Shown here: positions 2,979 to 28,595 of the stretch, piece by piece | How positions within the stretch are numbered: the first letter of the stretch is position 1 | Layout of the letters: the number at the start of each line of letters is the position of its first letter | Source of the DNA: Candidatus Hermodarchaeota archaeon | GTDB lineage: Archaea; Asgardarchaeota; Lokiarchaeia; Sigyniarchaeales; SOKP01 | DNA length: 64,000 nt | Assembly: GCA_048885525.1 (NCBI GenBank) | Contig: JBHLLP010000005.1 | Coordinates: forward strand, 1 to 64,000 | Direction of reading: 5' to 3' | Made by a program: the position numbers and the translations under genes | Notes under the pieces: generated by a model | What the model saw: the letters and a program-made list of their open reading frames with translations, nothing else | Told to the model about the DNA's origin: nothing | Databases searched by the model: none

Positions 2979-3285
2979 GGAATATACATTAAGATTAAAG
3001 GATTATTAAATATTTCTTTAGATATAAGAGTCTTTTAATTAAAACTTCTTATTCTTTATTTCTCTATAATAGTTCATAAACTATTAGAGAAATTTACATG
3101 AAGACTGTGGCGCATAATTATTTAGAAAATATAGAAAAAAATATAAATTAATTAAGGATTAAGTTGTTTTAATACTAGATTGAAATAAATTAATTTTATA
3201 AGAAATCAGCAAGTCTAAATTATAATTTCACGAAGTTTTTAATCTTTGAAAAAACCAATACTGTGTTAGAGAGAGTAAATAAAAA

Positions 3286-3816: not shown

Positions 3817-3975
3817 TTTAAGTGGTTAAAAAAATAATACTTTACGCATATATTTTATCATCTTTAAACTTTTTTTAGAATATTCTAATTTTTGAATATT
3901 TTCGAAATGGAACAATATAAATTATTTAATTTTTATAAGATGTTTATAGAAATAGACATCTTATTTTTCAACAAA

Positions 3976-9881: not shown

Positions 9882-12644
9882 ATGACTGAATCTGATAAAA
9901 AAGCAGCTGGTGATAAAATCAAGGGAACAACTTCAATAGAGTTGCTTAAAAAAGTAAATACTGCTGCTAACTATTGTTATAATTGTAATCGTTGTAATAA
10001 TGTATGCCCAACCGCTTTTCTTGATATATTTTATCCTCGTAGCCTAATTACTGATTTAACTTTTCTCACACCAGAAGAGGCATTACAGAATAATGATATT
10101 TGGAAATGTCTTACCTGTGGTTTATGTTCCATTTATTGTCCTATGACTAAAGAAAATACTGGAGTCAATTTCAATCAAATCATTAAGGATCTCCGCTCCC
10201 TTGCTTCAGAGTATAAACCATTACAAGATGGATTGTTAAGCTGTAATCATGAAAGAGTGTATTCGAGTTTACCAAAATTAATGGCTGAAGATAAAATCAA
10301 ATTTACGAATAAAATAGGATTTCTAAAGGGAACAGGATTAAAGACAGCCGAAAAAGGAGAAATTGGTTATTTTATGGGATGTGTACCATTCTTATCAGGG
10401 ACTGCTCCCTGTGTCGTTGGATGTCCTGCTGGAGTTGACGTCCAAGGTTATGTATCATTAATAGCAGAGGGTAAATACCAAGAAGCTTTAGATCTTATAA
10501 GAGAAACAAATCCATTGCCCTATTTATGTGGAAGAATTTGTACAGCTCAATGCGCATTAAATTGTAATCGTCAGCATTTAGATGATCCAATAGCTATCCG
10601 TGAACTTAAACGTTTTGTTTGCGATTGGGAATCTAACCATCCAAATCAGAGTAAAATAAAACCAGTACCCCAAACTAAAGAAAAAGTTGCTATAATTGGA
10701 GCTGGGCCAGGTGGATTATCAGCAGCGTATTTTCTCGCAAGAATGGGATATAAACCAACAGTTTTCGAAAAAGGTGATAAAACTGGAGGAGTGGTAAGAT
10801 ATGGAGTTCCACAATATAGGCTTTCTGATGAGGCTCTTGATTATGATGTAGAATTTATAAAAAGTATGGGAGTAGAAATTGTTTTAAAGAAAGAATTTGG
10901 ACCAGATTTCACCTTGGAAGACATTTGGGAGCAAGGATTCAAAGCCGTCTTTTTAGCAGTAGGATTATATGTCCCGAAAACTTTAAGACTTGAAGGGGAA
11001 GATTTGCCTAACGTCGATGTGGGATTAGATTTTCTTTTAGAACGAAAATATAAATGTTCAGAAAACCCAGAAGAATTTAAAGGTAAAACATTTGGTATTT
11101 TAGGAGGTGGTGCTGTTGCTGTGGATGTTGGAGAAACTGTTCTTCGATTAGGCGCAACTAAAGCTCATCTTGTAGATATATTATCTGAAGAAGCTTTAAA
11201 AAATGTACTTAAAGACATACATGAAGCTGAAAAAGAAGTAATGCAGTATCATTTTGAGACATCAACAGTAAAAATAACTAAAGAACCAGATGGAAGATTA
11301 GCCTTAAATTGTCATAAAATTGAATGGGGTAAGCCTGATCCCAAAACTGGAAGACGACCCCTCAATAAAATCGAAGGTTCAGAGTTTAAAATTGTTGTTG
11401 ACCGTGTTGTAATAGCTATAGGTCAGGCGCTTGATCCAGAACCACTCCTTGCCGCAACGGATAACCAATTAAAAGTTGAAAGGGGTAAAATTGTAGTTGA
11501 TGATTTAACTTACGAAACGGGTATTCCAGGATTTTTTGCTGGCGGTGATATTATTTATAGTTCATTAATGTGTGCTGTTGATGCTATTGGAGATGGTAGA
11601 GAAGCAGCTTATACAATTGATCGTTATCTTCGAGGTCTCGATTTAAAAGAAGGAAGAATAAGAAAGAATGATCTAAAAAGGTCCACTATTCCTAAAAAAT
11701 ATATCCTCACTCAATCATGTCAAGACATGAATTTCATGCCTAGTTCTGAGAGATTAGTCTGCTTTGACGAGATGGAATTAGGTTTTACTGAAGAACAAGC
11801 CAAAAAAGAAGCTAATCGATGTTTAAACTGTAATTGTTGTTGTAATACTGACCAGATACCTGAAGATTTTGAAAAAGCACTAGACGATTCAGATGTTATG
11901 GTATGCGATTATGGAAGTCAAGATACTTGGTCCTCAATAAATGCACCTAATTATTATGAGATACCCAAGAGTGTAATTGGTCTATTAAATCAAAATGATA
12001 TAATTCCAGTTGTTCTACCACAAGAAAAATGCTGTGGACATGATAGTGTTTGGCAAGGAGATGTAGGTACATTTAAAGCTTTAGCAGAATATAATATAAA
12101 ATTATTTAAAGATGCTGGAGTCAAAACTATAATCTTTAGTTGCGCTGAAGGATATTATACATGGAAAAATGATTATAAAAAGCTATTTGAAGGTAATAAT
12201 GAGTTTGATTTTGAGATTTATCATATTACTGAATATATTCTTAAAAAAAATCTCTTAGAAAATATAACATTTCCAACTTTTGACAAAATCAAAGCGACTT
12301 ACCATGATCCATGTAGACTTGGGAGATTGAGCAATATTTTCGATGCACCACGCGATGTATTGAAACTTATACCTTCTGTTGAATTAGTTGAAATGGAAGA
12401 TTCTAAGCAAGATGCAGATTGTTGTGGCGTTTCTGCATATATTTCTTGCAATCAAGATTCAAAAAAATTCCAGGAGAATAAGATTTTGCAGGCGATAGAA
12501 ACTGGAGCAGAATACCTTATTACCGCATGCCCTAAATGTATTACCCATTTAAATTGTTATCTGAATGAAAATAGAGAATTAAAAAATAAAATAAAAGTCA
12601 CAGATATTTTAAGTTTCATTGGAAAATTACTCTTTCTACTTTAA
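9882..12644 (+). CDS. HdrD-like protein (2x[4Fe-4S] plus CCG domains) with an inserted GltD/NfnB-like FAD/NAD(P) module
   Basis: CYNCNRCNNVCP and CLTCGLCSIYCP; APCVVGCPAG..CGRICTAQC; IIGAGPGG; GFFAGGD; EKCCG, YHDPCRLGR, DCCG and TACPKC. Confidence 0.88.
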   Translation: MTESDKKAAGDKIKGTTSIELLKKVNTAANYCYNCNRCNNVCPTAFLDIFYPRSLITDLTFLTPEEALQNNDIWKCLTCGLCSIYCPMTKENTGVNFNQIIKDLRSLASEYKPLQDGLLSCNHERVYSSLPKLMAEDKIKFTNKIGFLKGTGLKTAEKGEIGYFMGCVPFLSGTAPCVVGCPAGVDVQGYVSLIAEGKYQEALDLIRETNPLPYLCGRICTAQCALNCNRQHLDDPIAIRELKRFVCDWESNHPNQSKIKPVPQTKEKVAIIGAGPGGLSAAYFLARMGYKPTVFEKGDKTGGVVRYGVPQYRLSDEALDYDVEFIKSMGVEIVLKKEFGPDFTLEDIWEQGFKAVFLAVGLYVPKTLRLEGEDLPNVDVGLDFLLERKYKCSENPEEFKGKTFGILGGGAVAVDVGETVLRLGATKAHLVDILSEEALKNVLKDIHEAEKEVMQYHFETSTVKITKEPDGRLALNCHKIEWGKPDPKTGRRPLNKIEGSEFKIVVDRVVIAIGQALDPEPLLAATDNQLKVERGKIVVDDLTYETGIPGFFAGGDIIYSSLMCAVDAIGDGREAAYTIDRYLRGLDLKEGRIRKNDLKRSTIPKKYILTQSCQDMNFMPSSERLVCFDEMELGFTEEQAKKEANRCLNCNCCCNTDQIPEDFEKALDDSDVMVCDYGSQDTWSSINAPNYYEIPKSVIGLLNQNDIIPVVLPQEKCCGHDSVWQGDVGTFKALAEYNIKLFKDAGVKTIIFSCAEGYYTWKNDYKKLFEGNNEFDFEIYHITEYILKKNLLENITFPTFDKIKATYHDPCRLGRLSNIFDAPRDVLKLIPSVELVEMEDSKQDADCCGVSAYISCNQDSKKFQENKILQAIETGAEYLITACPKCITHLNCYLNENRELKNKIKVTDILSFIGKLLFLL
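12603..12644 (+). repeat. Gene-tail direct repeat A1 (3' end of the hdrD-like gene)
   Basis: GATATTTTAAGTTTCATTGGAAAATTACTCTTTCTACTTTAA matches 14556-14597 at 33/42 nt. Confidence 0.85.
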
Positions 12645-12761
12645 ATTATTACTATTTCAATATTTTTAGTACTAATATTTTTAACTTTATATATAAACTT
12701 AAAAAGAATAATAACTTAAAGTAATGTCAAAGGGTAATTTTCAAAAAAATTATTGATAATT

Positions 12762-14546
12762 ATGAGTGAAAACGAAATAGCATGGGATTTAAGCGAAATA
12801 TTTTCAAGTTGTGACGACCCTAAAATTTCAAGTACTATGAGTACACTTTTGGAACAAGCAGATGAACTTGCTAATGAATTTAAAGGAAAAATGAACTTAC
12901 CCTCGTTTTCAGCACAAAATTTAAATGTTCTCTTAGAAAAACAAGAAAAAATTCTAGCTTGTGTTGAAGAAATTGAAACTTTTTCATTCAACTCATTCTA
13001 TGCTAATATGATGTTGCCTGAAACTAAGGCTTTGTATAATAAATTTATTGATTTTAAAGGTACGATAACCAAGAAATTAGCATTCCTCGAATTAGAAATC
13101 GGTAAGCTTCTTAGCAACAATCCGCAGATGCTAGAGGAGGAAATATTAAGTAATTATAGAAATTATCTTAGAAAAATAATGAGAAAGTTTCCTTATAAGC
13201 TGACGGAAACAGAAGAACAGTTAATTCTAGAAAAAGATCAGTATGGGGTCAAGGCATGGCAGCAATTAAGAGATTCTTGGATAAGTGGGCAAAAATTTAA
13301 AGTTATTGTTGAGGGGAAGGAAGAAATAATATCTCCTAGTGAAGTATTTTCATTAATGCGACATCCCGATAGACAAACTAGAACGTCCGTCTTCCATGCA
13401 AATTGTGAATTCTTGAAAGACAATGAAAGAGTATATTCAACAGCATTACGTAGTATCTGTGGTGATTGGGTAAAAACTTCAAATCATAGACATTATGATA
13501 GTCCAATCCATCAAAGTCTTATTGAAAATGAGACTACTCGAAAAATCATTGACAGTATGATGAAATCAGTCGAGGAAAGCATTGATTTATGGCAAAGGTT
13601 CTTAAAAATCAAAAAAAACCTGTTCGATCTACCAAAACTGGGTGGTGTAGATACATGGGCGCGTTTACCTTCAAAGAAAAAATATTCATGGGAGGAAGCA
13701 AAGGAATTCATAATTCAAGTATATAATACGTTTGATCTTTCATTCGGAGAAATTGTAAGAGATATTTTCAACAGAAATCATATAGATGCTAGTGCTCGAG
13801 AAGGGAAAGCAAGCATGATTTACTGTCAAGAATGGTATAATGGAAAATCAGCTTTTATTTTAACCACCTTTAAAGGAACTCTAGGAGACATTGTTCCACT
13901 TGCTCACGAGTTAGGACATGGAATTCATTTTTATTTATCTTCTCGAAATCAATCATTTATAAATTATTTTCCAACCTTAACAGTGATGGAGACCGCTTCA
14001 ATTTTTGGTGAATTATTAATGACAGACTTCTTACTTAAAAACACTCAGTTAACCAGTGAAAAAGTAGCATTGCTTTATAATCAACTAAATTGGGTTGGAA
14101 TTACTATTTTCCTACTAAGTGCAAGAATGTGGTTTGAACAGAGTATTTATGATGCAATTATGAATGGAGAATTTTTAGATGGAGAATTGATTTCAAAGTA
14201 TTGGTGTATTGCCAGAGATAAGATTTATGGAGATTCTGTAGAGTGGTTTGATGAGATGAAATGGGAATGGGCTGCTGTGACGCATTATTTCCTAACAGAT
14301 AGAAGATTCTACAATTATCCATATGTTTATGCCCAGCTTTTTGTTTATGCATTATACCAAACTTACAAAAAAGAAGGCGAAGCATTCGTTCCAAAATTTA
14401 AAAAACTTTTAAGCGCTGGGAGCAGTTTATCTCCCGATGAGCTAGGTAAGATCGTGGGTTTGGATGTAACTAAACCTGATTTTTGGAAACATGGAATGAA
14501 ACAATATAAGCAATTTGTAGATGAGTTAGAAAAACTTACAAAATAA
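12762..14546 (+). CDS. pepF: Oligoendopeptidase F (M3B family)
   Basis: WDLSEIF N-terminus, HELGHGIH zinc motif, ETASIFGE and FYNYPYVYA. ATG 12762 chosen over TTG 12753. Confidence 0.92.
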   Translation: MSENEIAWDLSEIFSSCDDPKISSTMSTLLEQADELANEFKGKMNLPSFSAQNLNVLLEKQEKILACVEEIETFSFNSFYANMMLPETKALYNKFIDFKGTITKKLAFLELEIGKLLSNNPQMLEEEILSNYRNYLRKIMRKFPYKLTETEEQLILEKDQYGVKAWQQLRDSWISGQKFKVIVEGKEEIISPSEVFSLMRHPDRQTRTSVFHANCEFLKDNERVYSTALRSICGDWVKTSNHRHYDSPIHQSLIENETTRKIIDSMMKSVEESIDLWQRFLKIKKNLFDLPKLGGVDTWARLPSKKKYSWEEAKEFIIQVYNTFDLSFGEIVRDIFNRNHIDASAREGKASMIYCQEWYNGKSAFILTTFKGTLGDIVPLAHELGHGIHFYLSSRNQSFINYFPTLTVMETASIFGELLMTDFLLKNTQLTSEKVALLYNQLNWVGITIFLLSARMWFEQSIYDAIMNGEFLDGELISKYWCIARDKIYGDSVEWFDEMKWEWAAVTHYFLTDRRFYNYPYVYAQLFVYALYQTYKKEGEAFVPKFKKLLSAGSSLSPDELGKIVGLDVTKPDFWKHGMKQYKQFVDELEKLTK

Positions 14547-14555
14547 CTGATAATC

Positions 14556-14597
14556 GATCTTGTTAGCTTTATCGGAAAACTACTCTTTTTAGTTTAA
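14556..14597 (+). repeat. Gene-tail direct repeat A2 (orphan copy)
   Basis: Reads DLVSFIGKLLFLV* against DILSFIGKLLFLL* at the end of the hdrD-like gene. Confidence 0.85.
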
Positions 14598-14798
14598 TTT
14601 ATCTATATAATATATTTTATTTACAAATTTGTAAATTCATTGACTTCAAATTACTCTTTATTCTCTATGTTTTATGTTTAGATATTTTAAACAGAGACTT
14701 TTTTGGACTTAAGAAGAAACCTAATAAATATTGATACTTTATTTTTTCATAATTATTTTCTATCAAAAAATAACTCATAAATAATAGTGAATTTTGAA

Positions 14799-16724
14799 AT
14801 GAGTAAAACTAAGGAAATAGCAGTTCCTGATAAAGTAAAAGGTTTTACCCAAGTTCGACTTGACGTTGATCTAACAGATGGAAAAATTAGCAAAAGCGCA
14901 TTATCTAATGAATTCTGTCGCGATTGGATTGGCGGTTACGGTTTCGGTGCAAAAATTCTTTGGGATGAATGTCCTGCTGGTGTAGACCCATTAAGCCCTG
15001 ATAATGTTTTCGTTTATGCACAAGGGCCCTTTCCAGGAACAATCTTACCTACTTCTAGTAAATATGGAGTATTTGCTAAGTCCCCCTTAACAGGAATGTT
15101 TGGGATGGCAATCTCTTCTGGATCTGTTGCTGCTCAAGCTAGACGTGCTGGAATTAATACGATTGTGGTTAAAGGTAAAGCATCAGAACCTGTTTATATG
15201 GTTGTTGATGATGATGATTATTATTTAGTACAATGTAAAGATACATTATGGGGGAAAGGATGCTGGGAAACAGAAGAAATTCTGAGAGATGAATTTCAGG
15301 ATCATCGTCTTGGAATACTGACTATTGGTCCAGGAGGAGAACGCGGAGGTCATATGGGATGTATTACTAATGATCGCAATAGACAAGCTGGAAGAACTGG
15401 AATGGGTGCAATTATGGGCTCAAAGAATCTTAAAGCGATATGTTTTAGAGGAACCAAAGGGATTAGTGTTGCTCGTCCTGTTGAATTCTTTAAATTAGCA
15501 AAAAAGTTAATAAAAGTAGCAAATGGACCTGCTACTGCTAAATATCGTGATTTAGGCACACCTGCCGGTATAACCAGTTATAACAAGCTTGGAATGATGC
15601 CCACTTTTAATCATCGTGAAGGCACATGGGACAAAGTTGACGATGGAACCTTTACAGGTGATACACTTAATCAAGATTGGGTTGTAAAGAAAGTTGCGTG
15701 TTCTCAATGTTCTATAGCTTGTGATCACATAACGAAGATACCAAAAGATCATCCACATTGGCCTAATCTCTATTCAAGTATCGATCAAGAATTATGTTAT
15801 AGTTTTGGATCTGCATGTGGAAACTATGATTGGCCAACTGTATTCAAATGTGTGTCATTAACTGATGATTTAGGTGTTGATGCAATAAGTGCGGGAGTAA
15901 CAGCCGCAATGGCATGTGAATGCTATGAAGAAGGGATTATAACAAAAGATGATTTAGGTTATGAATTACCTTTTGGATCTACAGTTAATCTCGTAAGATT
16001 CACAGAAGAGATGATTCTTGGTAAGGGATTTGCAGGTAAGATTTTTGGAGATGGAACACGTGAAGCGGGAAAACGTTTAGAAGAAATGGGTAGAAAAAAT
16101 GCAAGCTACTATGGTATGCATATTAAAGGCTTGGAAATACCCGCTTTTGATGTTCATGGTATGAATAGTTTTGCAGTTGGAATGAGTGTATCTATTCGCG
16201 GTGCATGTCATCTAAGGAATGGTTCTTATGGACTTGATGCTAAAGGTAATTTTGACCGGTTCGGTTATGACAAACCTGTTGAAAGAGGTAAAGCAATTAA
16301 AGATTTAGAGGATATCTATGCCATTATTGATTCTTATATAGTGTGTAAATTTACTCGAGGTATTTATGAAAATGACGCTGAAATGGCTAAAGTATTTGAA
16401 TTAGTTACAGGAATCCCCGTAACTGATAAATTTATAGCACATAGAGGAGACGCAATTGTTACACTTTCGAAGTGCTTTAATATTCGAGAAGGATGGACTA
16501 GAGACGATGATAAACCTCCCGAGCGATTCTTCAAGCAACCACATACAAAGGGACCAGCTAAGGGAGTTACTTTAAAGGAAGATGGCTATCAGAAACTTTT
16601 GAGTGGTTATTATGAAGCTCGAGGCTGGGACACTAAGACAGGGATTCCAACTGATGCAACTTTGAAATCTCTTGGATTAGATTTTGTAATTGGTAAATTA
16701 AATGTCGCGGGAGGGAAGAAATAA
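14799..16724 (+). CDS. aor: Tungsten-type aldehyde:ferredoxin oxidoreductase family protein
   Basis: DPLSPDN, KSPLTG, AGRTGMGAIMGSKNLKAI, CSQCSIAC, GVDAIS, RGACH and YYEARGWD. Confidence 0.92.
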   Translation: MSKTKEIAVPDKVKGFTQVRLDVDLTDGKISKSALSNEFCRDWIGGYGFGAKILWDECPAGVDPLSPDNVFVYAQGPFPGTILPTSSKYGVFAKSPLTGMFGMAISSGSVAAQARRAGINTIVVKGKASEPVYMVVDDDDYYLVQCKDTLWGKGCWETEEILRDEFQDHRLGILTIGPGGERGGHMGCITNDRNRQAGRTGMGAIMGSKNLKAICFRGTKGISVARPVEFFKLAKKLIKVANGPATAKYRDLGTPAGITSYNKLGMMPTFNHREGTWDKVDDGTFTGDTLNQDWVVKKVACSQCSIACDHITKIPKDHPHWPNLYSSIDQELCYSFGSACGNYDWPTVFKCVSLTDDLGVDAISAGVTAAMACECYEEGIITKDDLGYELPFGSTVNLVRFTEEMILGKGFAGKIFGDGTREAGKRLEEMGRKNASYYGMHIKGLEIPAFDVHGMNSFAVGMSVSIRGACHLRNGSYGLDAKGNFDRFGYDKPVERGKAIKDLEDIYAIIDSYIVCKFTRGIYENDAEMAKVFELVTGIPVTDKFIAHRGDAIVTLSKCFNIREGWTRDDDKPPERFFKQPHTKGPAKGVTLKEDGYQKLLSGYYEARGWDTKTGIPTDATLKSLGLDFVIGKLNVAGGKK

Positions 16725-17285
16725 ATGTCAAAAGCCAAAACAACTAAAAAAAGAGGTGGGGTAGTTCACCAATTTATCATTGTCGATCCAAATTTGTGCA
16801 CTGGTTGCGAAACTTGTGAATCAGTGTGTTCATTTGTTCATGATGGAGAGTTTAACCCTATTAATACGAGAATTCACAGAGTAAGAATTGAACCCATCTT
16901 AAATGTAGCATTAGCATGTCAGAAGTGCGATGATGCTCCATGTGTTCGAAGTTGTCCAGAAAAAGCCTTAGAACAAGATAAAGAAACAGGTTCAATTATC
17001 GTTGATGATGACAAATGTAATGGATGTGCTTTTTGTATTCGTGCGTGTGATTTTGGTGTTCTAAGCTTACATATTCAATCTCAGAAGGCTCTAATTTGTG
17101 ATCTTTGTGAAACAATGAAGGATGATTATATAGATCCTGAAAGGGGTGAAAAATATCCTGCTTGTATCGATGTCTGTCCAAAAGAAGCTATCTCATTAAA
17201 AGATGTAGAACAAATTGGTGAAGAGAAACGAATTGATGCGGTAAAACGACTTTTTGGAGATATTCTAAAAGAAACTGAAGGTTAA
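16725..17285 (+). CDS. AOR-associated 4x[4Fe-4S] electron-transfer protein
   Basis: CTGCETCESVC, CQKCDDAPCVRSCP, CNGCAFCIRAC and CDLC..PACIDVCP. Directly abuts the aor stop codon. Confidence 0.9.
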   Translation: MSKAKTTKKRGGVVHQFIIVDPNLCTGCETCESVCSFVHDGEFNPINTRIHRVRIEPILNVALACQKCDDAPCVRSCPEKALEQDKETGSIIVDDDKCNGCAFCIRACDFGVLSLHIQSQKALICDLCETMKDDYIDPERGEKYPACIDVCPKEAISLKDVEQIGEEKRIDAVKRLFGDILKETEG

Positions 17286-17287
17286 AT
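17268..17287 (+). repeat. Gene-tail direct repeat B1
   Basis: AAAGAAACTGAAGGTTAAAT matches 17837-17856 at 19/20 nt. Confidence 0.75.
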
Positions 17288-17509
17288 AATATCTTTTTAT
17301 TCTTTATTTTTTTATAGATTTAATATGAAAGACTTTAAGATTATTTTATCGATAAAATGTATAGAACTATATCAAGATTAATCTAATTATGTAAATGAGT
17401 CTTGGTACTTCAAGATTCTTGATTGTTTAACCAGAACATTTATATATTGAAATAAGTTCTTATACTTTTGAAAAATTTAAAAAAATATTTTTTGAAGGAC
17501 AGTTAAACT

Positions 17510-17821
17510 ATGGACCCAGGTCTCATTGGGCTTATTGTTGGCATCGTAGGTTCAGCTATCGGAGTGTTAGGGGGCGTTATTGGAATTTATCTATCTATTA
17601 AACGCACAAAAACCACCGCTGAGCGAAAATTTGTAATTAAATGCACTCTGGCTGCGTGGATAGCGGTCACTCTGTTAATAATTTTACCACTTTTACTTTC
17701 TCTTGCTGGATTAATTCCACAATGGATTTATTGGATAGCATCAATCTTGTTTTATATCTTGCTTATATCATCAATCTTCTGGGCAAATAAGTATCAAGCG
17801 ACACTACGAGAGCAACACTAA
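17510..17821 (+). CDS. Small 3-TM membrane protein
   Basis: Gly-rich TM1 (GLIVGIVGSAIGVLGGVIG) plus two more hydrophobic helices. Lies between repeats B1 and B2. Confidence 0.8.
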   Translation: MDPGLIGLIVGIVGSAIGVLGGVIGIYLSIKRTKTTAERKFVIKCTLAAWIAVTLLIILPLLLSLAGLIPQWIYWIASILFYILLISSIFWANKYQATLREQH

Positions 17822-17836
17822 GTCTCAGTCAATATT

Positions 17837-17856
17837 AAAGAAACTGAAGCTTAAAT
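17837..17856 (+). repeat. Gene-tail direct repeat B2 (orphan copy)
   Basis: AAAGAAACTGAAGCTTAAAT reads KETEA* against KETEG*. Confidence 0.75.
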
Positions 17857-18000
17857 TGAAATTTTTATTATTTATATTTTTTTTCTTAATCTTACTGTTT
17901 ATAAAAAAATCATATTTTGGAATCTCGAATTTAAACATTAACTTCAGGTTTTTTTAGAATAATTGGATAAAAAAAAAAATAAAAAAAAAGGGATAATATA

Positions 18001-19293: not shown

Positions 19294-19922
19294 CTCTCAC
19301 CCCCCATGAGTTTTACAGCATTTTCAGCAGCATGAACCCCATCTCTTCCCCATCCATCAGCACCAACTTCTTTCGCATACTGCTCGCTTATCCTGACGCC
19401 TCCAATCATCACTTTTAAACTAGATCTTAAACCTTCATTTTCAAGAATTTGTATGTAATCTTTAATTGTTGCAGCAGTGGTACTCATGTAAGCACCTAAC
19501 CCAACGATATCAGGTCGGACCTCCTTAACCTTTTCAATGAACTTTGTAATGGGAACATCCACACCTAAATCATGTATCTCGAATCCTGATGCCTTGAGCA
19601 TAGAACTTACAATTTCCTTACCAAGGTCATGAATATCTCCTTCAACCGAACAAATGAGAAACTTTCCTATTTTATCTCCACCAGGCTCAGTTTGATCTTT
19701 TTCAAGTATAGCCATTGCAGATTTGAAGGCCTCAGAACTCAAAATCATATCTGGAAGAAAGTATACACCTTGCTTCCAAAGTTTTCCTGCTTCAAGAATG
19801 CCTGGAATTACTGCATCCTTAATAATCTTCAAATTATTAATTCCTGATTCTAGAATGTTTTTAGCTAATTCTTCAGCTAATTCTGGATCTCCTTCTAAAA
19901 TTGATTTTTTTAATTCCTCCAT
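19290..19922 (-). CDS. Methyltransferase corrinoid (B12-binding) protein
   Basis: EGDIHDLGK (DxHxxG), DLGVDVP and VMIGG. Confidence 0.93.
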   Translation of the reverse strand: MEELKKSILEGDPELAEELAKNILESGINNLKIIKDAVIPGILEAGKLWKQGVYFLPDMILSSEAFKSAMAILEKDQTEPGGDKIGKFLICSVEGDIHDLGKEIVSSMLKASGFEIHDLGVDVPITKFIEKVKEVRPDIVGLGAYMSTTAATIKDYIQILENEGLRSSLKVMIGGVRISEQYAKEVGADGWGRDGVHAAENAVKLMGGER

Positions 19923-20204
19923 AAGATCACGTATAAAATATTTATCTAAAATTTATAACTAGTAATATTTTGATATTTGTGTATATAAATTTTAGTTCCT
20001 ATTGATATAATATAGGCATAAAACTTAATTTATTTACACTCGAGACATGTGAATCTGTTTGTTCCTTATTATTTCTATTTTATTTTTAATTTCAGCATTT
20101 ATTTAAGTAGTTATTTTAAGAGGTAAATATTCCTTTTCTGATTAGACAAAATATTAGTGATATTATCATAATTAATGTGAAGGATTAAATATTTTTCAAC
20201 TTAG

Positions 20205-20681
20205 ATGATAGTTATGTACTCACTAAGAAAAGCAAATCTCAATGATATAGATAAATTGATAGATTTTCGAGTTGAGTTTTTAAAAAAAGTTCAAGATTTT
20301 CCCTCCAATAATGAAATTGAAGAATTCCGCAAAACTTTAAAGGAATATTTTTTGGAGAAAATGAAATCCAATGAATTTGTAGCTTGGATGGCAGAAATTA
20401 ATAATGAGATCATCGCTACAAGCGGGTTATCTTTTCTACAAAAACCACCTCATTTTATTAATATGACGGGAAAATTTGCTTATATTATGAATATGTATAC
20501 TAAACCTGAATGGCGTAGGAAAGGGATTGGAGCTGCGCTTCTTAAGAAATTATTTGAAGAAATAAGGAAAAAGGGGATACAATCAGTAGTTCTTCATTCT
20601 ACTCCTACTGGAAGACCATTATATGAAAAATATGGTTTTAAAGAAAATGATGGTGATAAAGAAATGATCTTAAAATTATAA
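20205..20681 (+). CDS. GNAT acetyltransferase
   Basis: NMYTKPEWRRKGIG and LYEKYGF. The start may be ATG 20214. Confidence 0.9.
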   Translation: MIVMYSLRKANLNDIDKLIDFRVEFLKKVQDFPSNNEIEEFRKTLKEYFLEKMKSNEFVAWMAEINNEIIATSGLSFLQKPPHFINMTGKFAYIMNMYTKPEWRRKGIGAALLKKLFEEIRKKGIQSVVLHSTPTGRPLYEKYGFKENDGDKEMILKL

Positions 20682-21051
20682 ATAAAGAAATTTAACAATT
20701 TATATCATTTTTAAGAATATTTGATGAGTGTAATTTTACTAGTATATATATTTAATATATTGATCGAAAATGATACATTTTCAATATGAAATGTTTGGAA
20801 ATGTTAAATTTATAAGATTTTTTTTACGAAATTCGCCAGTTTCAATTAATTGAAACCGTTGGATAAAAATTTCAAGTATTAACTCATCCTATATTACTGA
20901 AAGAGAATTGATTTGTTATAATAATTTAATTTTAATAATATAGACTATTTACAATATCATAATATATTTCTTAGAAATATTCTAAGAACTAAAAGATAAC
21001 ATCGTTAATCTTTACAATTCAGGAGGTTAGGATTAACAAAGGTGAAAAATA

Positions 21052-23028
21052 TTGTCTGATAAACAGACCAATGAAAGTGTTAACGAAGATCAACCAAGAA
21101 TAGGTGTGTTCGTATGCCATTGAGGTATCAATATCGCAGGGATCTTAGATATTCCTAAAATTGTTGAAGAAATAGACAAATTAGAAAATGTTTGGGCTTA
21201 TCCTTATTTATCTTTGTGTACTGAAGGTGGATCCACGGAAATTAAAGAGAAACACGAAGATCGAAAATTTGATAGAATTTTAGTAGCAGCTTGCACCCCA
21301 AAGACTCATCAACCCGTTTTCCATGCAATATTAAAAGAAATGGGATTGCCTCCAAGATACTTAGAATTTGTAAACATTCGAGAGCATTGTTCCTTTGTAC
21401 ATCAAGCTCCAGAAGTACGCGAAAGAGCTACATTAAAAGCCATTGAATTAATCAAAGCCGGGATCGCTCGAGCAAGATTATTGGAAGATGTACCTACTAA
21501 AACTGTACCAGTAGAACCTGCAGCTCTAGTTGTAGGTGGAGGAATTGCTGGCTTATCTGCTGCTATCGATTTAGGTGATGCTGGATATAAGGTATATTTA
21601 GTTGAAAAAAATACTACAATTGGTGGACGTATGTCTCAACTTGATAGAACATTTCCTACCGATGATTGTTCTATATGAATCTTGGGCCCAAAAATGCTTG
21701 AAGCCAATCGACATCCAAACATAGAGATCTTATCTTATAGCGATGTTGATGTTATAGATGGCTATATCGGTAATTTTGAAGTCAAAGTACGAAGAAAAGC
21801 ACGATTCGTTGATGAAACAAAATGTACTGGATGTGGTACATGTAGAGATGTGTGTCCAGTTTACACGAGTAATTATTTTGATGAACATCTATCTGCAAGA
21901 AAAGTTATTGATATTGCTTTTGCTCAAGCGGTACCAGCAGTTTCGCAACTTGAGAGAAAAGTATGCATTGAATGCTTTGCATGCGTTGATGCGTGTGAAC
22001 AAGAGGCAATTGATTTTAGTCAGCAGGATAAAATTGAAGCACTTAAAGTTGGTACAATAATAGTTGCTACGGGTTGGGACCTCTATCAAGGCGATGACTA
22101 TGGATATGGTATATATGAAAATGTCATTAACCAAATAGAATTAGAACGAATCCTTGCTCCAAATGGTCCTACTTATGGACATTTAAAGCGCCCATCTGAT
22201 GGAAAACGTCCTACAAAAGTGCTGTTCATTAATTGCGTTGGTTCACGAGATATTAATAAAAATGCTCATTGTAGTGTTATATGTTGTAATCTTTCACTTA
22301 AAAATTCCAAACTAATAAAATCAGAGTATCCTGATTCACAAATCCTTTGTACATATATAGATATGCGATGTGCTGGAAAAGATTATGAAGAATACTATAG
22401 AAGATCTCGTGATGCTGGTATAATTTTTGTTAAAGGATTAGTAGGGAAAATTGAAGAAGATCCACTAACAAAAAATCTTAAAGTACAATTTGAACCAGTT
22501 GGGACAGATACTGTAGTTTCTATGGAATTCCACATGGTTGTGTTGTCGCCTGCTTCATTACCATCTCAAGGTACAATTGAAATTGCGAGAGTGTTAAACA
22601 TGGAGAAAAGTCCTGATGGGTTCTTAAAAGAATACCACGCTCGATTAGATCCAATTAGCACAAAAGTACCCGGAATTTATATTTGCGGTTCTGCTCAAGG
22701 GCAAAAAGAAATTGATAAATCGGTAAGTCAAGCGAGAGGAGCAGCATCAGTAGCAGGTATTCCAATGGGGAAGGGAGAATATACGATGGAATTAATCAGA
22801 GCTTCTCCCTCAGATGAACGATGTGCTAAATGCTATAAATGTATAGAAGCTTGTCCATACACAGCAATTTCAGTAAATGAAAAAGGAAATATTGTAGTTG
22901 ACCTAATAAATTGTCGCGGTTGTGGAACATGTGCGGGTCTATGTCCTTCAAAGGCAATTGAATTAACATACTTTAGAGATGATCAATATATGGCATTAGT
23001 AGATGAATTATTACCAATAGAGGAATAG
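21052..23028 (+). CDS. hdrA: Heterodisulfide reductase subunit A, selenoprotein (658 aa; Sec at codons 24 and 209)
   Basis: One frame runs from TTG 21052, with GGTGA RBS at 21041-21045. TGA 21121-21123 lies in RIGVFVCH-U-GINIAG and TGA 21676-21678 in FPTDDCSI-U-ILGPKM. Both are conserved HdrA Cys positions. This joins ORF-track pieces 21214..21678 and 21682..23028. Ends in TAG. Confidence 0.93.
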
Positions 23029-23041
23029 AGAGGTAGATAAA

Positions 23042-23500
23042 ATGGCAGAAGCAAATGATATTAAAATAATTGTTTATGCTTGCTGGAAATGAGGTTATGG
23101 TTCTGCTGATATGGCTGGTACTATTAGAGCACAATATCCAGATTCGATTAGAAATGTTTTAGTACCATGCTCGGGACGTGTAGGATCAGACTTAATAATG
23201 CGAGCATTTGGAAGAGGTGCAGATGGAGTAGTAATTAATGCTTGATATCCAGGTGAATGTGATTATGAAACAGGAAATTACCACGCATATAGACAAGTTG
23301 AATACGTTAAAGAAATTTTAAGAGTTGTTGGTATGAGTCCAGAGAGAATTAAGATAATCTACTGTACTGCTGCTGAAGGTCAAAAATTCCAAAATGAAGC
23401 TATAGAAATTGATAAAATAATCAGGAAATTAGGACCAAGTCCTCTACGTACAAAAGGCACACCTAAAAAAGAAAAAGCTAAGGCGAAAGCTAAAGCTTAA
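23042..23500 (+). CDS. mvhD: MvhD/VhuD [2Fe-2S] hydrogenase subunit D, selenoprotein (152 aa; Sec at codons 17 and 68)
   Basis: Missing from the ORF track. Translates as MAEANDIKIIVYACWK-U-GYGSADMAG..VPCSGRV..GADGVVINA-U-YPGECDYETGN..GMSPERI..CTAAEGQKF..LGPSPL. TGAs at 23090-23092 and 23243-23245. GAGGT RBS at 23030-23034. Ends in TAA. Confidence 0.93.
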
Positions 23501-23508
23501 AAAATTTA

Positions 23509-23582
23509 ATGTGTTGACTGATGAAGCTGAGTTAAAAAAAACGAGAGCTCAGTTGAAGAAATGGGTGCACCATATAACACAT
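23509..23582 (+). promoter_or_regulatory. Eukaryote-type SECIS element
   Basis: Lower helix AUGUGUUG (23509-16) pairs with UAACACAU (23575-82). Core AUGA (23521-24) sits opposite GA (23555-56). Upper 9-bp helix 23525-33 pairs with 23546-54. The apical loop AAAAAAAACGAG is A-rich. Confidence 0.88.
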
Positions 23583-23689
23583 AAAAATGGTTTGATAAAA
23601 TTTAATATAAATATTTATAATTTATTTTAAAAAATTTGGGAAATTTAAGAAAATATAAAAGTATTGTAAATAGTTAGAGTTGGAATTAC

Positions 23690-24829
23690 ATGGAAGCAAT
23701 GGCAGAATATTTGATAAAGATTGAAGATTTCCCCAAAATCTTGGCAATTTTACTAAAAGAGAAAACGGTAGACAAAATTATCGGTGCTGAATTGAGAGTT
23801 GATAAGAAATCTGGTAATATAGATAGATTTACTGTTCAGCCTAAGTTAGCAGAAAAAGAGGAAGATCTAAAGGATTTTCCATTAACTCCTTTAATTGCAT
23901 TTGGATATGCTAGAACTGATTCTGCTTCAAAATTTTTACATAAATCCGTGGAGGGTGCAATGAAGGAGAAAGTAGGTCTTATTGCACGGCCATGTGATAC
24001 AAGAGCATTAATTGAGCTTGCTAAAATAAAACAGGTAAATCTTGATAATCTTTTTATAATTGGTATTGAAGATAGAGGGATGCTTCCTAAAGCAGGAAGA
24101 GAGATGAGATCTATTAAAGATGTTGATCCTATTAAAATCCTTAAAGAAAAAGTTGGAGATAAAGGTCTTATTGTCAAGATGGAAGATGGAACAACTAAAG
24201 AGTTAGAGCTTACTGTTGCTGAGAATTGTTTGAGATGCTATCGAAAAATTCCAGTTATAGCGGATTTAACTGTTAGCGATCTTGGTATTCCAGTTGATTC
24301 AGACGAGATAATTTTAAAGGTATATTCAGATAAAGGAAGTGAGATTCTAGAAAAATCAGGTGTAAAAGCAAAAACACTACCAGATAAAGAAAAGAAAGCT
24401 CATCTAGCAAAATATACTGAAATAATCGATAAAGCAAAAGAAAAGCGAACAAAGGATTTAGAAGAATGGGAGAAGCTTTCACAAGAAGAAAAAATAGCAG
24501 AACTTCTTAAATGCACGATGTGCAACACTTGTATAAGAGGATGCCCAGTTTGCTACTGTGTGGATTGTATTTTGCAGAAAAAGAGAAAGGCCAAAAACAT
24601 TGATAAAGCAACATATCAATTAACGCGTATAGCACATGATGCTGATAGATGCGTAGAATGTGGAAACTGTGATAATAACTGTCCTCAGAATCTACCTTTA
24701 TCACTATATTTTCAATCATTAAATGAAGCCTTTAAGAAGAAGTTTAAATACGAGGCAGGCATGTCTCTTGAGGATATTCCGTTTCGATCTGGAAAAGCAA
24801 TTTCCCAGATGGAATTAGAAAAAACATAA
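23690..24829 (+). CDS. FdhB/FrhB-family flavin/Fe-S subunit
   Basis: ARPCDTRALIEL, CLRC..ADLTVSD, CTMCNTCIRGCPVCYC and CVECGNCDNNCP. Confidence 0.85.
   Translation: MEAMAEYLIKIEDFPKILAILLKEKTVDKIIGAELRVDKKSGNIDRFTVQPKLAEKEEDLKDFPLTPLIAFGYARTDSASKFLHKSVEGAMKEKVGLIARPCDTRALIELAKIKQVNLDNLFIIGIEDRGMLPKAGREMRSIKDVDPIKILKEKVGDKGLIVKMEDGTTKELELTVAENCLRCYRKIPVIADLTVSDLGIPVDSDEIILKVYSDKGSEILEKSGVKAKTLPDKEKKAHLAKYTEIIDKAKEKRTKDLEEWEKLSQEEKIAELLKCTMCNTCIRGCPVCYCVDCILQKKRKAKNIDKATYQLTRIAHDADRCVECGNCDNNCPQNLPLSLYFQSLNEAFKKKFKYEAGMSLEDIPFRSGKAISQMELEKT
24788..24829 (+). repeat. Gene-tail direct repeat C1
   Basis: TCTGGAAAAGCAATTTCCCAGATGGAATTAGAAAAAACATAA matches 28521-28562 at 37/42 nt. Confidence 0.9.
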
Positions 24830-24921
24830 ATAATAACTTATTTTTTAATTTTCTTTTTTATAGATTTAGGTTTTTAAGTTCCTAAAGAACTTTAGATTTT
24901 CACTTTTTTATTATAATTTTT

Positions 24922-26193
24922 TTATATGTATGAACTAAAGAGACTTATTATTTTTGGAAACATAGTCTCAATTAGAGATTTTGATGTATTATTTACTATA
25001 GCATCTTTAATAATGTGATTTATCTCATCAATAGTCCTATCTCCCAATAGTAGTTTAAATAAAAGTGCTCCAGGAATCATGAGGTCAGTAGTTCTAGGAT
25101 TTGGATATTCTTTTTTAATTTCAATTTTCTCGATTTTTCCGTTATTAAAAGTTAATACAATAGTTTCATTATAATTGCTAATTCTTATAGTTTTAGTTAG
25201 TCCTTTAAATTCAGAATGATTTAGTCTCCTTTCAATTAAATTTTTTACAAAGTGAAAAAACTTTTTTAAATTTGGAATTTTTACTTGCCATCCATAGGTT
25301 GAAACTGGTTTTCCCCCTAATGATTTGATATAATCAAACAATGGTGAATGTTCACTAACACTAAATGTGATTACATCATTTGCTTTATACTTTCCCATCT
25401 TTTTAATAAATTGAAGCAAGCTTATCATCTCGTTTTTAGATAAATTAGGAGTAGTTATTTCATAATTTTGATTATCATAACTCATTCCAACAGAAAAATA
25501 ATTTGTGGGGATACTAAGTTCATTAAAAATGTAAGTGGATCGAACTTCTGAATTAAATATATCATTTAAGTATTTAAATTTAAAAGATTCTGGTTCAAAC
25601 CTGTTAAAGATATAGAAACGCTTATGGAATTGATTATATTTTGTTTTAATAAAAGAAAGGTCCTTAGAATTAGCTTTTCTTATGTTAAGGTTCTCATATT
25701 TTTTATTAGGGATTTTGGATGCTGGAATCGCTATTCTTTCATCGAGAGATGAAACATATTCATATCCTAACTTACGATAAAAATAGGGGATACCTCTTAT
25801 AACTGAAAGAATATAACCATTTTGGTCAATTATTTTTTCATAAAGCTTGTTTAAAAGTTTAACGAAGCCTTTTTCTCTATATTCTTCAAGAGTTCCAACA
25901 AATTCCATTTCACATATTGGTAATGGAATGTCTTCAATTTGCCATTCTATAGGAGATAGACATATCAAAGAGATTAGTTTATTTAATTTATCATCCTTGA
26001 TATATAACCACAAAATCTCATTTCTTCCCGGATGTTCTAAAAAAATATTTGGAATATAAGTCTTTAATACCTCTTCTTGATGAACTTCCATACTAAAATT
26101 AACTATAGATTTTAATTCGTCTTCGCTATCAGCAGCAATGTGAATACTGTAGCGATCATCGATTTTCGCAATATAACCTTTTCGAAATTCCAT
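24922..26193 (-). CDS. Eis-like GNAT acetyltransferase
   Basis: EFVGTLEEYREKG, GIPYFYRKLGYEY and an SCP2-like C-terminus. Confidence 0.8.
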   Translation of the reverse strand: MEFRKGYIAKIDDRYSIHIAADSEDELKSIVNFSMEVHQEEVLKTYIPNIFLEHPGRNEILWLYIKDDKLNKLISLICLSPIEWQIEDIPLPICEMEFVGTLEEYREKGFVKLLNKLYEKIIDQNGYILSVIRGIPYFYRKLGYEYVSSLDERIAIPASKIPNKKYENLNIRKANSKDLSFIKTKYNQFHKRFYIFNRFEPESFKFKYLNDIFNSEVRSTYIFNELSIPTNYFSVGMSYDNQNYEITTPNLSKNEMISLLQFIKKMGKYKANDVITFSVSEHSPLFDYIKSLGGKPVSTYGWQVKIPNLKKFFHFVKNLIERRLNHSEFKGLTKTIRISNYNETIVLTFNNGKIEKIEIKKEYPNPRTTDLMIPGALLFKLLLGDRTIDEINHIIKDAIVNNTSKSLIETMFPKIISLFSSYI

Positions 26194-26386
26194 AATTTTG
26201 AAAATAGTTAGCTCTTTTTCAATCTATTTAATTCCTAAGTTGCTGGTAGTTGTAAATCTTTGGAAAAATTCCGTTATTTTGATTTGAAAAATAGATATGA
26301 AAAGTGTGTTTATAAATTATCCATATATCTTAATATATATAATTAATTATCAATTTAAGGTAAAATCCCAAATTTATAGTTTTATC

Positions 26387-26557
26387 ATGAATGAAGAAAA
26401 TATACAAAACGAGTTAAAAGAAATTGGTCAAAAACTTGATAGAATCGGGAAGCTTAATAATAACATACTAACTACACTCACGATATTAGTTATTATATTA
26501 ATTATTCTCGTTTTTATGTGTTTCATATATTTCTCAGGTCATTTCCCTCCAATATAG
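26387..26557 (+). CDS. Small single-pass membrane protein
   Basis: Coiled-coil-like MNEENIQNELKEIGQKLDRI followed by a hydrophobic stretch. ATG 26387 preferred over 26297. Confidence 0.55.
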   Translation: MNEENIQNELKEIGQKLDRIGKLNNNILTTLTILVIILIILVFMCFIYFSGHFPPI

Positions 26558-26637
26558 TAATTTAAGTTTTTGAAATTGGATTATCTAATTTGAGATTTAA
26601 GTTCTCAATTTGATTCTGTTTTATTTATAAATAGAAT

Positions 26638-28416
26638 TCACTTCTTTGGAGTCTTAATATCATTTTCCGATGATATCTCAATCCCTTCTTCCTTTTCATA
26701 AGGTTTAATCGGTTTAGAGGGATTAATAGGAGTATTACAACCCCAACAAAGATTTTCTAAATCTATCAGCGTCTTGGCACAATTCTGACAGTAAATTGTA
26801 TTACATTCTGGACAAATATAGATATTAAACCTCTCGATATCTCCCTTACAAACCAAACATACCTTTCTTTCTTTATGAACTGAAATTTTTTCAATAGTCA
26901 TATGTGTTATGAATGACATCCGATTATGCAACATCCCTTGGATTTGGTCTTCTATATGGGCAAGTTTCATGCGTTCAGTTAAGGGTGCATTTGATTCTTT
27001 TAATTTTTCCCATACGTCTAATTGTTTGAGTAATTTTTCCTGCTCATTTGAAACTTTCATTGCCAACAGTTTATAATTATGCCTTTCGGCTATTTGTTGA
27101 GCTTGGGTCAAGAATCGTCTAGCTTCTTTTATATTCAAAACTATTAACGATAGTCTGGCTTGTAATAGGTAAGTTTCGGCTAGTAACAAGTGTGAACGGC
27201 TTTTCTCAGCTATATCCAATAGTTGAGTAATAAAAGATTGTAACTCCTCTAATATTTCAAGATCACTGGTAATGCGTAAATCAATTAAGAGTAAATCGCA
27301 AAGATTAAGCAGCGTAAAAGTCAAGAAATCAAAATCAAAAGTTTCTTTAAGACAGTGTTTGAGTATTTTTTCGGCTCTCCCCCGATTAATAGCTCTTAGG
27401 TTAGTTTTCAACATTATTGCCTTATTCATGCGATACACCAGTTTTGATAATTCGCTAATTCCTTGATCTTTGATTTGCTTCAAACGCATTAAGTATTGCC
27501 GCGCTTGTTCAAGATCGTTCATATCTAAAGCTACGTGAAATAGTGAATCGAGTACTTTCCATGGGGAAGAAGTAATGCTTTCCCAAATTTCTAAGCTTCG
27601 CTTTAGGTATTCTTGTGCATGAAATAAGTCGCCTTTTTGTTGATATATTCCCCCAATATTATTAAGAAATCCCGCAATATCCCTTTTAGAATTCAATTTT
27701 TCCGCAATTACTAAACCCTGTTTATTATAATCTAGAGCATTATCTAAATCTCCTTTATATAAGTAAATTGTCCCTATTGTTGCATAACTTCGCGAAATAT
27801 TCCGATTGAAATGGTCTTCTTCAAGTGCCAAACCTCGTTTAGCGTATTCTAAAGCACGATCTAGATCACCTTTAAGAGCTATAATAAATCCACAACGATT
27901 AAGGCACCGCGCAATATTTCGCTCTAATCCATATTCCTCTCCTATTTTCAAGCTATGCTTAAGGTGATCCATGGAGGTATCTAATTCACCTTTACTTTCA
28001 TATATAAGACCTTTTATAAAAGAAATAGCCACTTTCTTTCGCGCAAGTTCTTTTGATGATAAATCTATCATTTCAAAGAGCACATCTTCATTATTAGAAA
28101 GTACTTCTAACGCTTTTTCCTCTTGATTCAGCCATACTAAAGATTCAGCCATAATAAGGGAAGCATCAAGCAATTGAAGACGGTTTTTCAATTTTTTACT
28201 CTCTTGATATACTTGTTCTGCTAATTTAAGCGCTTCTTGGTCTTGACCTAATCTACTTAAGCTGATACTTTTGAGGAGGTCGTAAGAAACTTGCTCTTGA
28301 GTGGTGAGAATTGTGTTTTCACTCAAATTATTTAGAGTTTGGAGGGCTTCGTAAAATTTTCCTTTCTCTTGGAGCTGTTTTGCTTGAATTAGTTCCTTAA
28401 TTTCTGAATTTTGCAT
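26638..28416 (-). CDS. TPR-repeat protein with C-terminal Cys-rich zinc finger
   Basis: Repeated LNNIGxIYxxKGDLxxA-type TPRs and a C-terminal CLVC..CPEC..CQNC..CWGC. Confidence 0.88.
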   Translation of the reverse strand: MQNSEIKELIQAKQLQEKGKFYEALQTLNNLSENTILTTQEQVSYDLLKSISLSRLGQDQEALKLAEQVYQESKKLKNRLQLLDASLIMAESLVWLNQEEKALEVLSNNEDVLFEMIDLSSKELARKKVAISFIKGLIYESKGELDTSMDHLKHSLKIGEEYGLERNIARCLNRCGFIIALKGDLDRALEYAKRGLALEEDHFNRNISRSYATIGTIYLYKGDLDNALDYNKQGLVIAEKLNSKRDIAGFLNNIGGIYQQKGDLFHAQEYLKRSLEIWESITSSPWKVLDSLFHVALDMNDLEQARQYLMRLKQIKDQGISELSKLVYRMNKAIMLKTNLRAINRGRAEKILKHCLKETFDFDFLTFTLLNLCDLLLIDLRITSDLEILEELQSFITQLLDIAEKSRSHLLLAETYLLQARLSLIVLNIKEARRFLTQAQQIAERHNYKLLAMKVSNEQEKLLKQLDVWEKLKESNAPLTERMKLAHIEDQIQGMLHNRMSFITHMTIEKISVHKERKVCLVCKGDIERFNIYICPECNTIYCQNCAKTLIDLENLCWGCNTPINPSKPIKPYEKEEGIEISSENDIKTPKK

Positions 28417-28520
28417 TTAATTATCTCAATAGAATAAATATTACAAACTTGTCCAAAACGTTTTAAATACAATTAATAAAGTAAGTTAGTTTTCAATTTA
28501 AATGTAATTTATAATTTCAG

Positions 28521-28562
28521 TCTGAAAAAGCAATTGCCAAGATGGAATTAGAAAAAATTTAA
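28521..28562 (+). repeat. Gene-tail direct repeat C2 (orphan copy)
   Basis: Reads SEKAIAKMELEKI* against SGKAISQMELEKT* at the end of the FdhB-like gene. Confidence 0.9.
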
Positions 28563-28595
28563 TTACTTTTTTTAAAATTCTAGAGTTTTATTATT

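Follow-up and report, generated by a model that had tools for sequence, protein, structure and literature searches.

A Candidatus Hermodarchaeota archaeon of the class Lokiarchaeia carries genes that are followed, beyond unrelated accessory genes, by a second and intergenic copy of their own 3′ end. These orphan tails are probably the scars of additive, one-sided homologous recombination, arising by either homology-facilitated illegitimate recombination (HFIR) or single-crossover (Campbell-type) insertion. We analysed them in positions 1 to 64,000 of contig JBHLLP010000005.1 (assembly GCA_048885525.1), the 64,000-nt stretch referred to here as the window, and across its genome (G000) and the genomes of relatives.

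Gene tails recur beyond accessory genes

Three repeat pairs that a sequence-only reading of the window had listed were borne out by exact counts. Positions 12603-12644 and 14556-14597 are identical at 33 of 42 bases (pair 1), 17268-17287 and 17837-17856 at 19 of 20 (pair 2), and 24788-24829 and 28521-28562 at 37 of 42 (pair 3). In each pair the first copy is the genuine 3′ end and stop of a + strand Fe-S protein gene, while the second is intergenic, lying 0.57–3.7 kb downstream beyond one to three unrelated genes; every copy ends in a stop codon. Read as amino acids up to that stop, the working and orphan copies differ conservatively, with VTDILSFIGKLLFLL against IIDLVSFIGKLLFLV in pair 1, KETEG against KETEA in pair 2, and FRSGKAISQMELEKT against FQSEKAIAKMELEKI in pair 3.

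Orphan tail 1 is the resident allele on the resident flank

Anchor gene 1 (9882-12644, +) encodes a 920-aa fusion of Fer4, GltD-like flavoprotein and CCG parts. Its working tail (12603-12649, +) leads into cargo 1 (12645-14555, +), which consists of intergenic DNA with a promoter-like motif, the M3 oligoendopeptidase F gene pepF (12753-14546, +) and a further 9 nt. Orphan tail 1 follows (14556-14602, +; 37/47 identical to the working copy), then a palindrome, TTTACAAATTTGTAAA (14620-14635), and the aldehyde:ferredoxin oxidoreductase (AOR) gene (14787-16724, +). We searched 30 genomes of the same genus and fetched 20 pair 1 loci. Between the anchor gene and AOR, pepF was present in about ten genus genomes and absent in twelve, and at these empty sites the stop of the anchor gene is followed by AOR after 110–200 nt. 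In five of these twelve (G002, G015, G006, G041 and G013) the real tail aligns to the orphan tail of the window and onward into the AOR flank. The palindrome, which lies 22 nt past orphan tail 1, comes after the real stop in the empty genomes and before AOR everywhere, and so marks the ancestral flank. Orphan tail 1 is also the genus-typical allele, with its best matches in G015 (43/51) and in G005 and G001 (42/51 each). The working tail ending in LFLL before the stop, together with the promoter-like motif of pepF, is common only to the pepF-carrying G014, G008 and G013b. Across most 60-nt windows the anchor gene is nearest to G005 (85–97%), and its last ~60 nt are nearest to G014 and G013b. 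Together, the shared tail and motif, the allele of the orphan and its flank show that the working tail arrived with pepF and that the orphan is the resident tail. This supports the proposal of the sequence-only reading that the incoming DNA carried a homolog of the anchor gene plus cargo and stranded the old tail. The right half of orphan tail 1 resembles G005 and the left half G002 and G041; alleles of the genus are mosaic everywhere, and no donor was sampled.

Two side observations concern this locus. The palindrome is perfect, occurs once in the window and is kept upstream of the AOR gene in about 15 relatives, which makes it a candidate operator for a dimeric regulator. Within the G013 bin, contigs C31, C41 and C3 hold both empty and pepF-carrying alleles of the locus, reflecting either strain heterogeneity in the bin (7% contamination) or polymorphism within the population.

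A relative carries a serial array at the pair 2 locus

Anchor gene 2 (16725-17285, +) encodes the 4Fe-4S partner of AOR and directly follows the AOR gene. Its working tail with 3′ flank (17268-17313, +) borders cargo 2 (17286-17836, +), which is made up of intergenic DNA, a gene for a 103-aa membrane protein (TM103; 17510-17821, +) and 15 nt. Orphan tail 2 and its ancestral 3′ flank (17837-17882, +) come next. In most relatives the Fe-S partner gene of AOR ends in KETEA, as the orphan does, and in G003 the real tail plus ~60 nt of native flank is nearly identical to orphan tail 2 plus its flank. No TM103 match was found in the 30 genus genomes, and homologs were found in metagenomes.

A related metagenome scaffold (L166) is 86% identical to the window at this locus. 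Its order is AOR, an Fe-S gene ending in KETEG, the same spacer, TM103, the same 15-nt junction and a first stranded tail; after that comes a B12-binding gene whose last codons and stop derive from a second, longer stranded tail reading VERLFGEILKETEA up to its stop. The flank past this second tail is identical at 56 of 60 positions to the flank past the orphan in the window. What separates the two loci is therefore a single cassette with a stranded tail on either side, which was either deleted by recombination between two orphans or inserted at an orphan. L166 is thus a serial array of cassettes and stranded tails, and the accretion to which the sequence-only reading had likened the pairs is seen here in serial form, as two cassettes with two stranded tails. 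That its junction cuts into the B12 gene argues that junctions are arbitrary and not site-specific. A search for serial orphans in G000 gave nothing convincing, so that the array was seen in L166 only, and cargo 2 showed no convincing terminal inverted repeats at its borders.

Distant TM103 homologs lie in unrelated contexts. On other archaeal metagenome contigs (L168-L170 and L172-L173) they usually lie ahead of either an ABC-2 permease paired with an ABC ATPase or an HTH_45 gene, and TM103 may be a small accessory transporter subunit. Separately, in L055 (G016), L067 (G041) and L071 (G018) the Fe-S gene that follows AOR is interrupted by ~30 nt between in-frame halves, and this insert may be a tRNA-type mini-intron.

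Cargo turns over inside the pair 3 bracket

Anchor gene 3 (23690-24829, +) encodes an FrhB/FdhB-like Fe-S protein, with its working tail at 24782-24832 (+). Cargo 3 (24830-28514) holds three genes, encoding a GNAT-like protein (24922-26193, minus), an 86-aa open reading frame (ORF) product (26297-26557, plus) and a TPR protein (26638-28416, minus). Orphan tail 3 (28515-28565, +; 43/51 identical) ends 34 nt from the stop of an MFS gene (28596-29843, minus). The HdrA-FrhB genes upstream are kept in 20 genomes, and the cargo interval is a hot spot, its content differing in almost every genus genome. In G011, a decayed orthologue of the orphan (CGA to TGA) sits in the same place beside MFS, only 72 nt past the true stop. 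Scar 3 is therefore older than the present cargo of the window, and the bracket has seen turnover of its cargo. No orphan was recognisable next to MFS in three other MFS-bearing relatives (G010, G016 and G020).

An independent event at the same locus was found in G024 (L016; G024:C13, 2456-5555), where a 1.55-kb unit is present as a tandem homeologous duplication with copies 84–89% identical. The unit comprises the FrhB tail, a spacer, a 297-aa gene and the tail of a convergent GNAT gene, and both copies of the 297-aa gene are intact. The same topology, with back-to-back orphan tails of two convergent genes, occurs in G000 on contig C33 (1232-4396, L075). There the order is a SET-domain gene, a stranded Ras-GTPase tail (minus, 1847-2077), a stranded SET tail (2101-2153), a TPR gene and a GTPase gene. 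Such a topology is given directly by a single crossover with a circular copy, or by unequal exchange. The contig as a whole is an array of GTPase and TPR units.

Orphan tails are enriched across the genome

We scanned G000 (3.58 Mb in 87 contigs, 29% G+C, 2966 ORFs called) by comparing the last 45 nt of each gene, anchored at the stop, with the next 10 kb, using permuted gene/flank pairings and the opposite strand as controls. At a score of at least 14 there were 30 genes, compared with 1–4 for permuted pairings and 2 for the opposite strand. Many of the matches were tandem paralogs; with these set aside, strong orphans lay downstream only. Pair 1 scored 16.5 and pair 3 scored 27.5, values that four permuted sets reached 0–2 times each. 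An unanchored test with 45-nt queries, counting only matches outside same-strand ORFs with a score of at least 20, gave 13 matches for gene tails downstream and 0 for tails upstream, 1 and 1 for gene heads, 1 and 1 for mid-gene queries, and 0 for permuted pairings. The genome-wide tail search proposed by the sequence-only reading thus found 13 downstream orphan tails, with every control class at 0 or 1. Called ORF starts were over-extended and could have blunted the head queries, so we ran it again, tiling each gene end with five queries. With scores of at least 22 this gave 10 tail-downstream matches, none head-upstream, none tail-upstream and 2 head-downstream.

Of about 19 cases genome-wide, four fall between 1.8 and 28.6 kb of the window, where 0.14 would be expected. 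The fourth of these, absent from the original finding, involves a DUF364/DUF4213 protein gene (anchor gene 4; 1813-2628, +). The last 69 nt of the gene form the working repeat copy (2556-2624), and orphan tail 4 (3090-3158, +) is identical to it at 52 of 69 positions. Between them lies cargo 4 (2629-3089, ~460 nt), whose sole ORF (2670-2978, minus; 102 aa) is zinc-ribbon/TM-like without a firm family. Five relatives (G005, G008, G043, G021 and G024) lack this cargo and are empty sites, with the real tail contiguous with the sequence that follows the orphan in the window. At an XPF/ERCC4 gene (C5:82964), at least 10 relatives are empty, 1 has the same cargo and 6 have other cargo. The empty sites that the sequence-only reading had called for in related genomes therefore exist for pair 1, pair 2, DUF364 and XPF, and the orphan lies on the ancestral flank each time.

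The tie to redox genes suggested by the first three pairs is incidental, since anchors elsewhere in the genome include ThiC, ProRS, XPF, GatC, AroD, a SET-domain protein, ubiquitin-like proteins and Ras-like GTPases. The cargo genes are ordinary accessory genes, among them TPR proteins, an esterase, a solute-binding protein, a C45-type acyltransferase, DUF6259 and small membrane proteins, and a typical cargo is a single complete gene that has short flanks and in many cases runs convergent to the anchor. Repeats range from about 20 to more than 250 nt and are 72–97% identical. In the long repeats the differences are concentrated at third codon positions, showing that the two copies diverged as working genes.

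Scar counts were extended to the first 0.8 Mb of G006, a complete genome of the same genus (N runs masked), and to 0.8 Mb of G038, from another genus of the same order. G006 had three stranded tails and none in the permuted control, a scar density like that of G000. G038 had no stranded tails and six stranded gene starts upstream. In one case in the region examined (G038:C1:1.0-1.8 Mb, L126-L165) an SRP54-like N-terminus lies 1.9 kb upstream, and identity starts exactly at the ATG.

One-sided recombination and its alternatives

We favour the following account, in which the orphan tails are left by one-sided homologous recombination. A related archaeon would supply DNA that holds its own version of a conserved gene's 3′ end with other genes downstream of it, and this DNA would pair with the resident gene via the common 3′ end. 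The outcome would be insertion rather than clean replacement, with the far junction falling at an arbitrary position just upstream of the end of the resident gene. The gene would then end in an imported tail, with the cargo next and the resident tail stranded, silent, beside the flank it had before. For the far junction there are two possible origins: it could arise while linear DNA is being integrated, as in HFIR, or through earlier circularisation of the fragment followed by a single crossover (Campbell-type insertion-duplication). The resulting two direct copies are substrates for host recombination, as the comparison of the window with L166 illustrates, so that cassettes can be deleted, exchanged or serially stacked, and housekeeping recombination functions alone would suffice. 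Whether the incoming DNA was linear or circular, which enzymes recombined it and how it entered the cell are matters of inference.

The sequence-only reading had placed homologous recombination within the gene and an illegitimate event at the far end. Uninterrupted anchors and the switch of nearest relative in the last ~60 nt of anchor gene 1 support the former. For the latter, the junctions are arbitrary, lying 9 nt (pair 1) and 15 nt (pair 2) beyond the stop of the cargo gene and, in L166, within the final codons of the B12 gene. With no donor sampled and the alleles of the genus mosaic, the data did not tell HFIR, which that reading had named as a resemblance, from Campbell-type insertion.

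Several observations weigh against one-sided recombination, or limit how far it reaches. The coding repeat of pair 2 is only ~20 nt, short for homologous recombination, and its stop-anchored score of 12.5 was reached 4–12 times in permuted sets, which is near chance by sequence alone; pair 2 therefore rests on the flank comparison with relatives. At pair 1, the pepF-carrying relatives are without an orphan, so that most exchanges at that locus are scarless, and for pair 3 no truly empty site was present among the loci sampled. In HFIR the second junction forms at a non-homologous site, usually with 3–10 nt of microhomology, and as no donor sequence is available for any event, microhomology at the far junctions was not readable. 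The tail bias of 13:1 in the genus is not predicted by the mechanism itself. With the opposite bias in G038 (0 tails, 6 heads), selection against expressed orphan heads is not the whole explanation. Finally, G000 is a metagenome-assembled genome, and mobile elements are often lost in binning.

A purely internal origin, in which unequal exchange would duplicate a stretch over the gene tail in tandem and the second copy would decay with nothing imported, is unlikely. It would account for the tandem 1.55-kb unit at the FrhB locus of G024, and for long fragments on C33 and C47 that come from multigene families (Ras-like GTPases, ubiquitin-like proteins) in tandem arrays. However, in five tested cases the cargo is absent at the empty sites of relatives and the orphan sits on the ancestral flank, and at pair 1 the working tail is allied with the pepF-carrying genomes. 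The copies moreover differ by 10–28% with a third-position bias, which indicates that they diverged as functional genes in different genomes, and paralogs decaying at random would leave behind starts and middles no less often than tails, a pattern that was not seen.

The variable repeat length, the absence of an identical core, the arbitrary junctions and the lack of shared cargo ends argue against both an integron-like system and integrase-borne elements. Neither an identical crossover core nor a fixed repeat length was found among the repeats, and the cargo ends of 20 cases had nothing in common. A dedicated cassette system of a new kind is very unlikely. Gene ends would here be attachment sites for circular one-gene cassettes, a specific enzyme would build integron-like arrays without IntI, and the lineage would set the end preference. 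Compact one-gene cargo hugging gene boundaries, the same TM103 cassette and junction in two genomic contexts, the two-cassette array in L166 and the clustering of events in hot regions are all in keeping with such a system, as is the lineage-specific polarity, which simple recombination does not predict. Against this, there is no candidate enzyme, conserved cassette end or fixed repeat length, junctions are arbitrary, and the identical junctions in the window and L166 can also be explained by common descent with deletion between two orphans. A Lokiarchaeial cassette economy at gene ends has an outside chance. One-gene units, bracketed by copies of the end of a host gene, would leave as circles and insert again at that gene in another cell, arrays would build up without an integrase, and a lineage factor would pick 3′ ends in this genus or 5′ ends in that of G038.

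We consider classical integrative elements highly improbable. On this account a site-specific tyrosine or serine recombinase would act at an att site over the gene's 3′ end and supply a replacement tail, with the integrase since lost or acting in trans; the gene would stay intact through the supplied tail and direct repeats would lie at both ends of the insert, as they do here. The G000 assembly encodes one tyrosine recombinase (C54:15022-15942, L085), which is the last cargo gene of a weak case, beside a T-rich sequence that agrees at 27 of 33 positions with the end of a TauE-like gene 4.5 kb upstream. This recombinase has the XerC/D architecture (a SAM-like N-domain plus a catalytic domain), and we judged its position next to so weak a match to be coincidence. 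Six other families were searched (resolvase, TnpB, DDE_Tnp_1, rve, Y1 transposase and Cas1), and none was present in the whole assembly; no recombinase was found in well-supported cargo. The repeats, from ~20 to more than 250 nt, have no identical core, the longest identical run in pair 1 being 8 nt, and the cargo is mostly one ordinary gene, with no common termini and with arbitrary junctions, once inside last codons. The absence of integrases and transposases that the sequence-only reading reported for the window thus extends to the assembly, save for the one XerC/D-type recombinase, which is not associated with the scars.

Chance matches in AT-rich DNA or assembly artefacts carry negligible probability and are refuted at these loci by the flank comparisons, for although the genome is 29% G+C and permuted sets of 2966 genes do reach the pair 2 score, pairs 1 and 3 stand far above the controls, homologous flanks in independent assemblies corroborate all three pairs, chimeric junctions are improbable with repeats that are 72–90% identical or only ~20 nt, too little for k-mer joins, and orphan tail 3 is in the same place in the independent assembly G011.

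Two further candidates were rejected. Stop-codon read-through or recoding was suggested by orphans 1 and 2 being in frame past the stop of the cargo ORF, but pepF, which ends in TAA, has no relation to the anchor gene, and in other cases the orphan is not in frame. A long target-site duplication is conceivable for the 20-nt pair 2; for pairs 1 and 3 it is ruled out by 12–21% divergence, coding-type differences and the linkage of tail and cargo.

Relation to known recombination scars

The scars are a fresh instance of a kind of recombination scar already described in bacteria, and nothing in the analysis marks them as peculiar to Lokiarchaeia. Experimental demonstrations of HFIR come from Acinetobacter baylyi, Pseudomonas stutzeri, Streptococcus pneumoniae and Escherichia coli conjugation (PMC122324, PMC122325, PMC3240628, as cited in PMC5361080 and PMC2884548). 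As in the scars, one junction lies in common homology and the other is arbitrary, and foreign DNA is placed beside the anchor without a dedicated recombinase; for pairs 1 and 2, DUF364 and XPF, DNA absent from the recipient lineage was indeed added beside the anchor. HFIR is, however, known from laboratory transformation of bacteria, whereas here it would be read from natural scars in an Asgard archaeon. The laboratory outcome also usually deletes recipient DNA between the joints, while in the scars the homology runs on downstream of the far joint and the duplicated tail stays.

Campbell-type insertion likewise duplicates a homologous segment as direct repeats around the insert, and it accounts for the homeologous tandem unit of G024 and for the back-to-back orphan tails of convergent genes as well. 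Such insertion gives reciprocal chimeras, the working copy running from recipient to donor sequence and the orphan from donor to recipient. The scars differ from it in that their homology goes down to 20–70 nt, and the circular intermediate would here be hypothetical.

Loci of Rhs, contact-dependent inhibition (CDI) and type VI secretion systems (T6SS) contain strings of orphaned 3′ regions for which HFIR has been proposed (Jackson 2009, PMC2935791; Kirchberger 2017, PMC5361080). As in the scars, incoming DNA anchored in a conserved gene pushes the old 3′ region downstream, and the process repeats serially. The anchors there are polymorphic toxins whose displaced tips are kept with immunity genes; the scars described here have metabolic or housekeeping anchors, homologous tails and unrelated cargo. 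HFIR has also been proposed for dimorphic loci in E. coli.

Integrase-mediated entry of e14 or phage 21 into the 3′ end of icd leaves behind a 163-bp pseudo-icd (PMC6379469). Both this and island accretion at tRNA genes resemble the scars in that a replacement gene end is supplied, the old end becomes the far direct repeat and serial accretion is possible. Unlike e14 at icd, the scars lack an integrase and an identical att core, their repeats vary in length and they hold one-gene cargo. Gene-transfer hot spots without mobile elements have been attributed to double recombination at flanking core genes, and they match the scar loci in having different accessory genes in each relative, mosaic flanking core genes and no mobility genes. 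Double crossovers are scarless, and orphan tails would mark the one-sided minority of events. The scars do not constitute an integron, which has IntI, attI and cassettes with attC hairpins, as the only such gene is of Xer type and cassettes have no common ends.

Described Asgard mobile elements comprise viruses, plasmids and tRNA-targeting integrative elements. The Asgard mobile-element literature searched describes integrase- and tRNA-linked integration and does not mention stranded gene tails. The genomes of Asgard archaea are large and rich in accessory genes, and the ways in which they acquire genes matter for models of eukaryote origin. The scars would represent a second route of gene gain, for which host recombination and the DNA of relatives suffice. 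Each scar tells where a gain event took place, with what polarity and at what relative age, and which allele was resident, so that hot spots, donor lineages and turnover rates may be measured straight from genomes. The difference in polarity between genera is a concrete question that they raise.

Other features of the window

Between scars 2 and 3, two adjacent HdrA-like ORFs of 154 and 448 aa (21214-23028, +) are one gene split by an in-frame TGA. The TGA lies in the motif DDCSI-U-ILGPK, the classical selenocysteine site of HdrA. Directly after scar 4 are tandem Ras-family small GTPase genes (3892-4506 and 4621-5151), a gene type characteristic of Asgard genomes.

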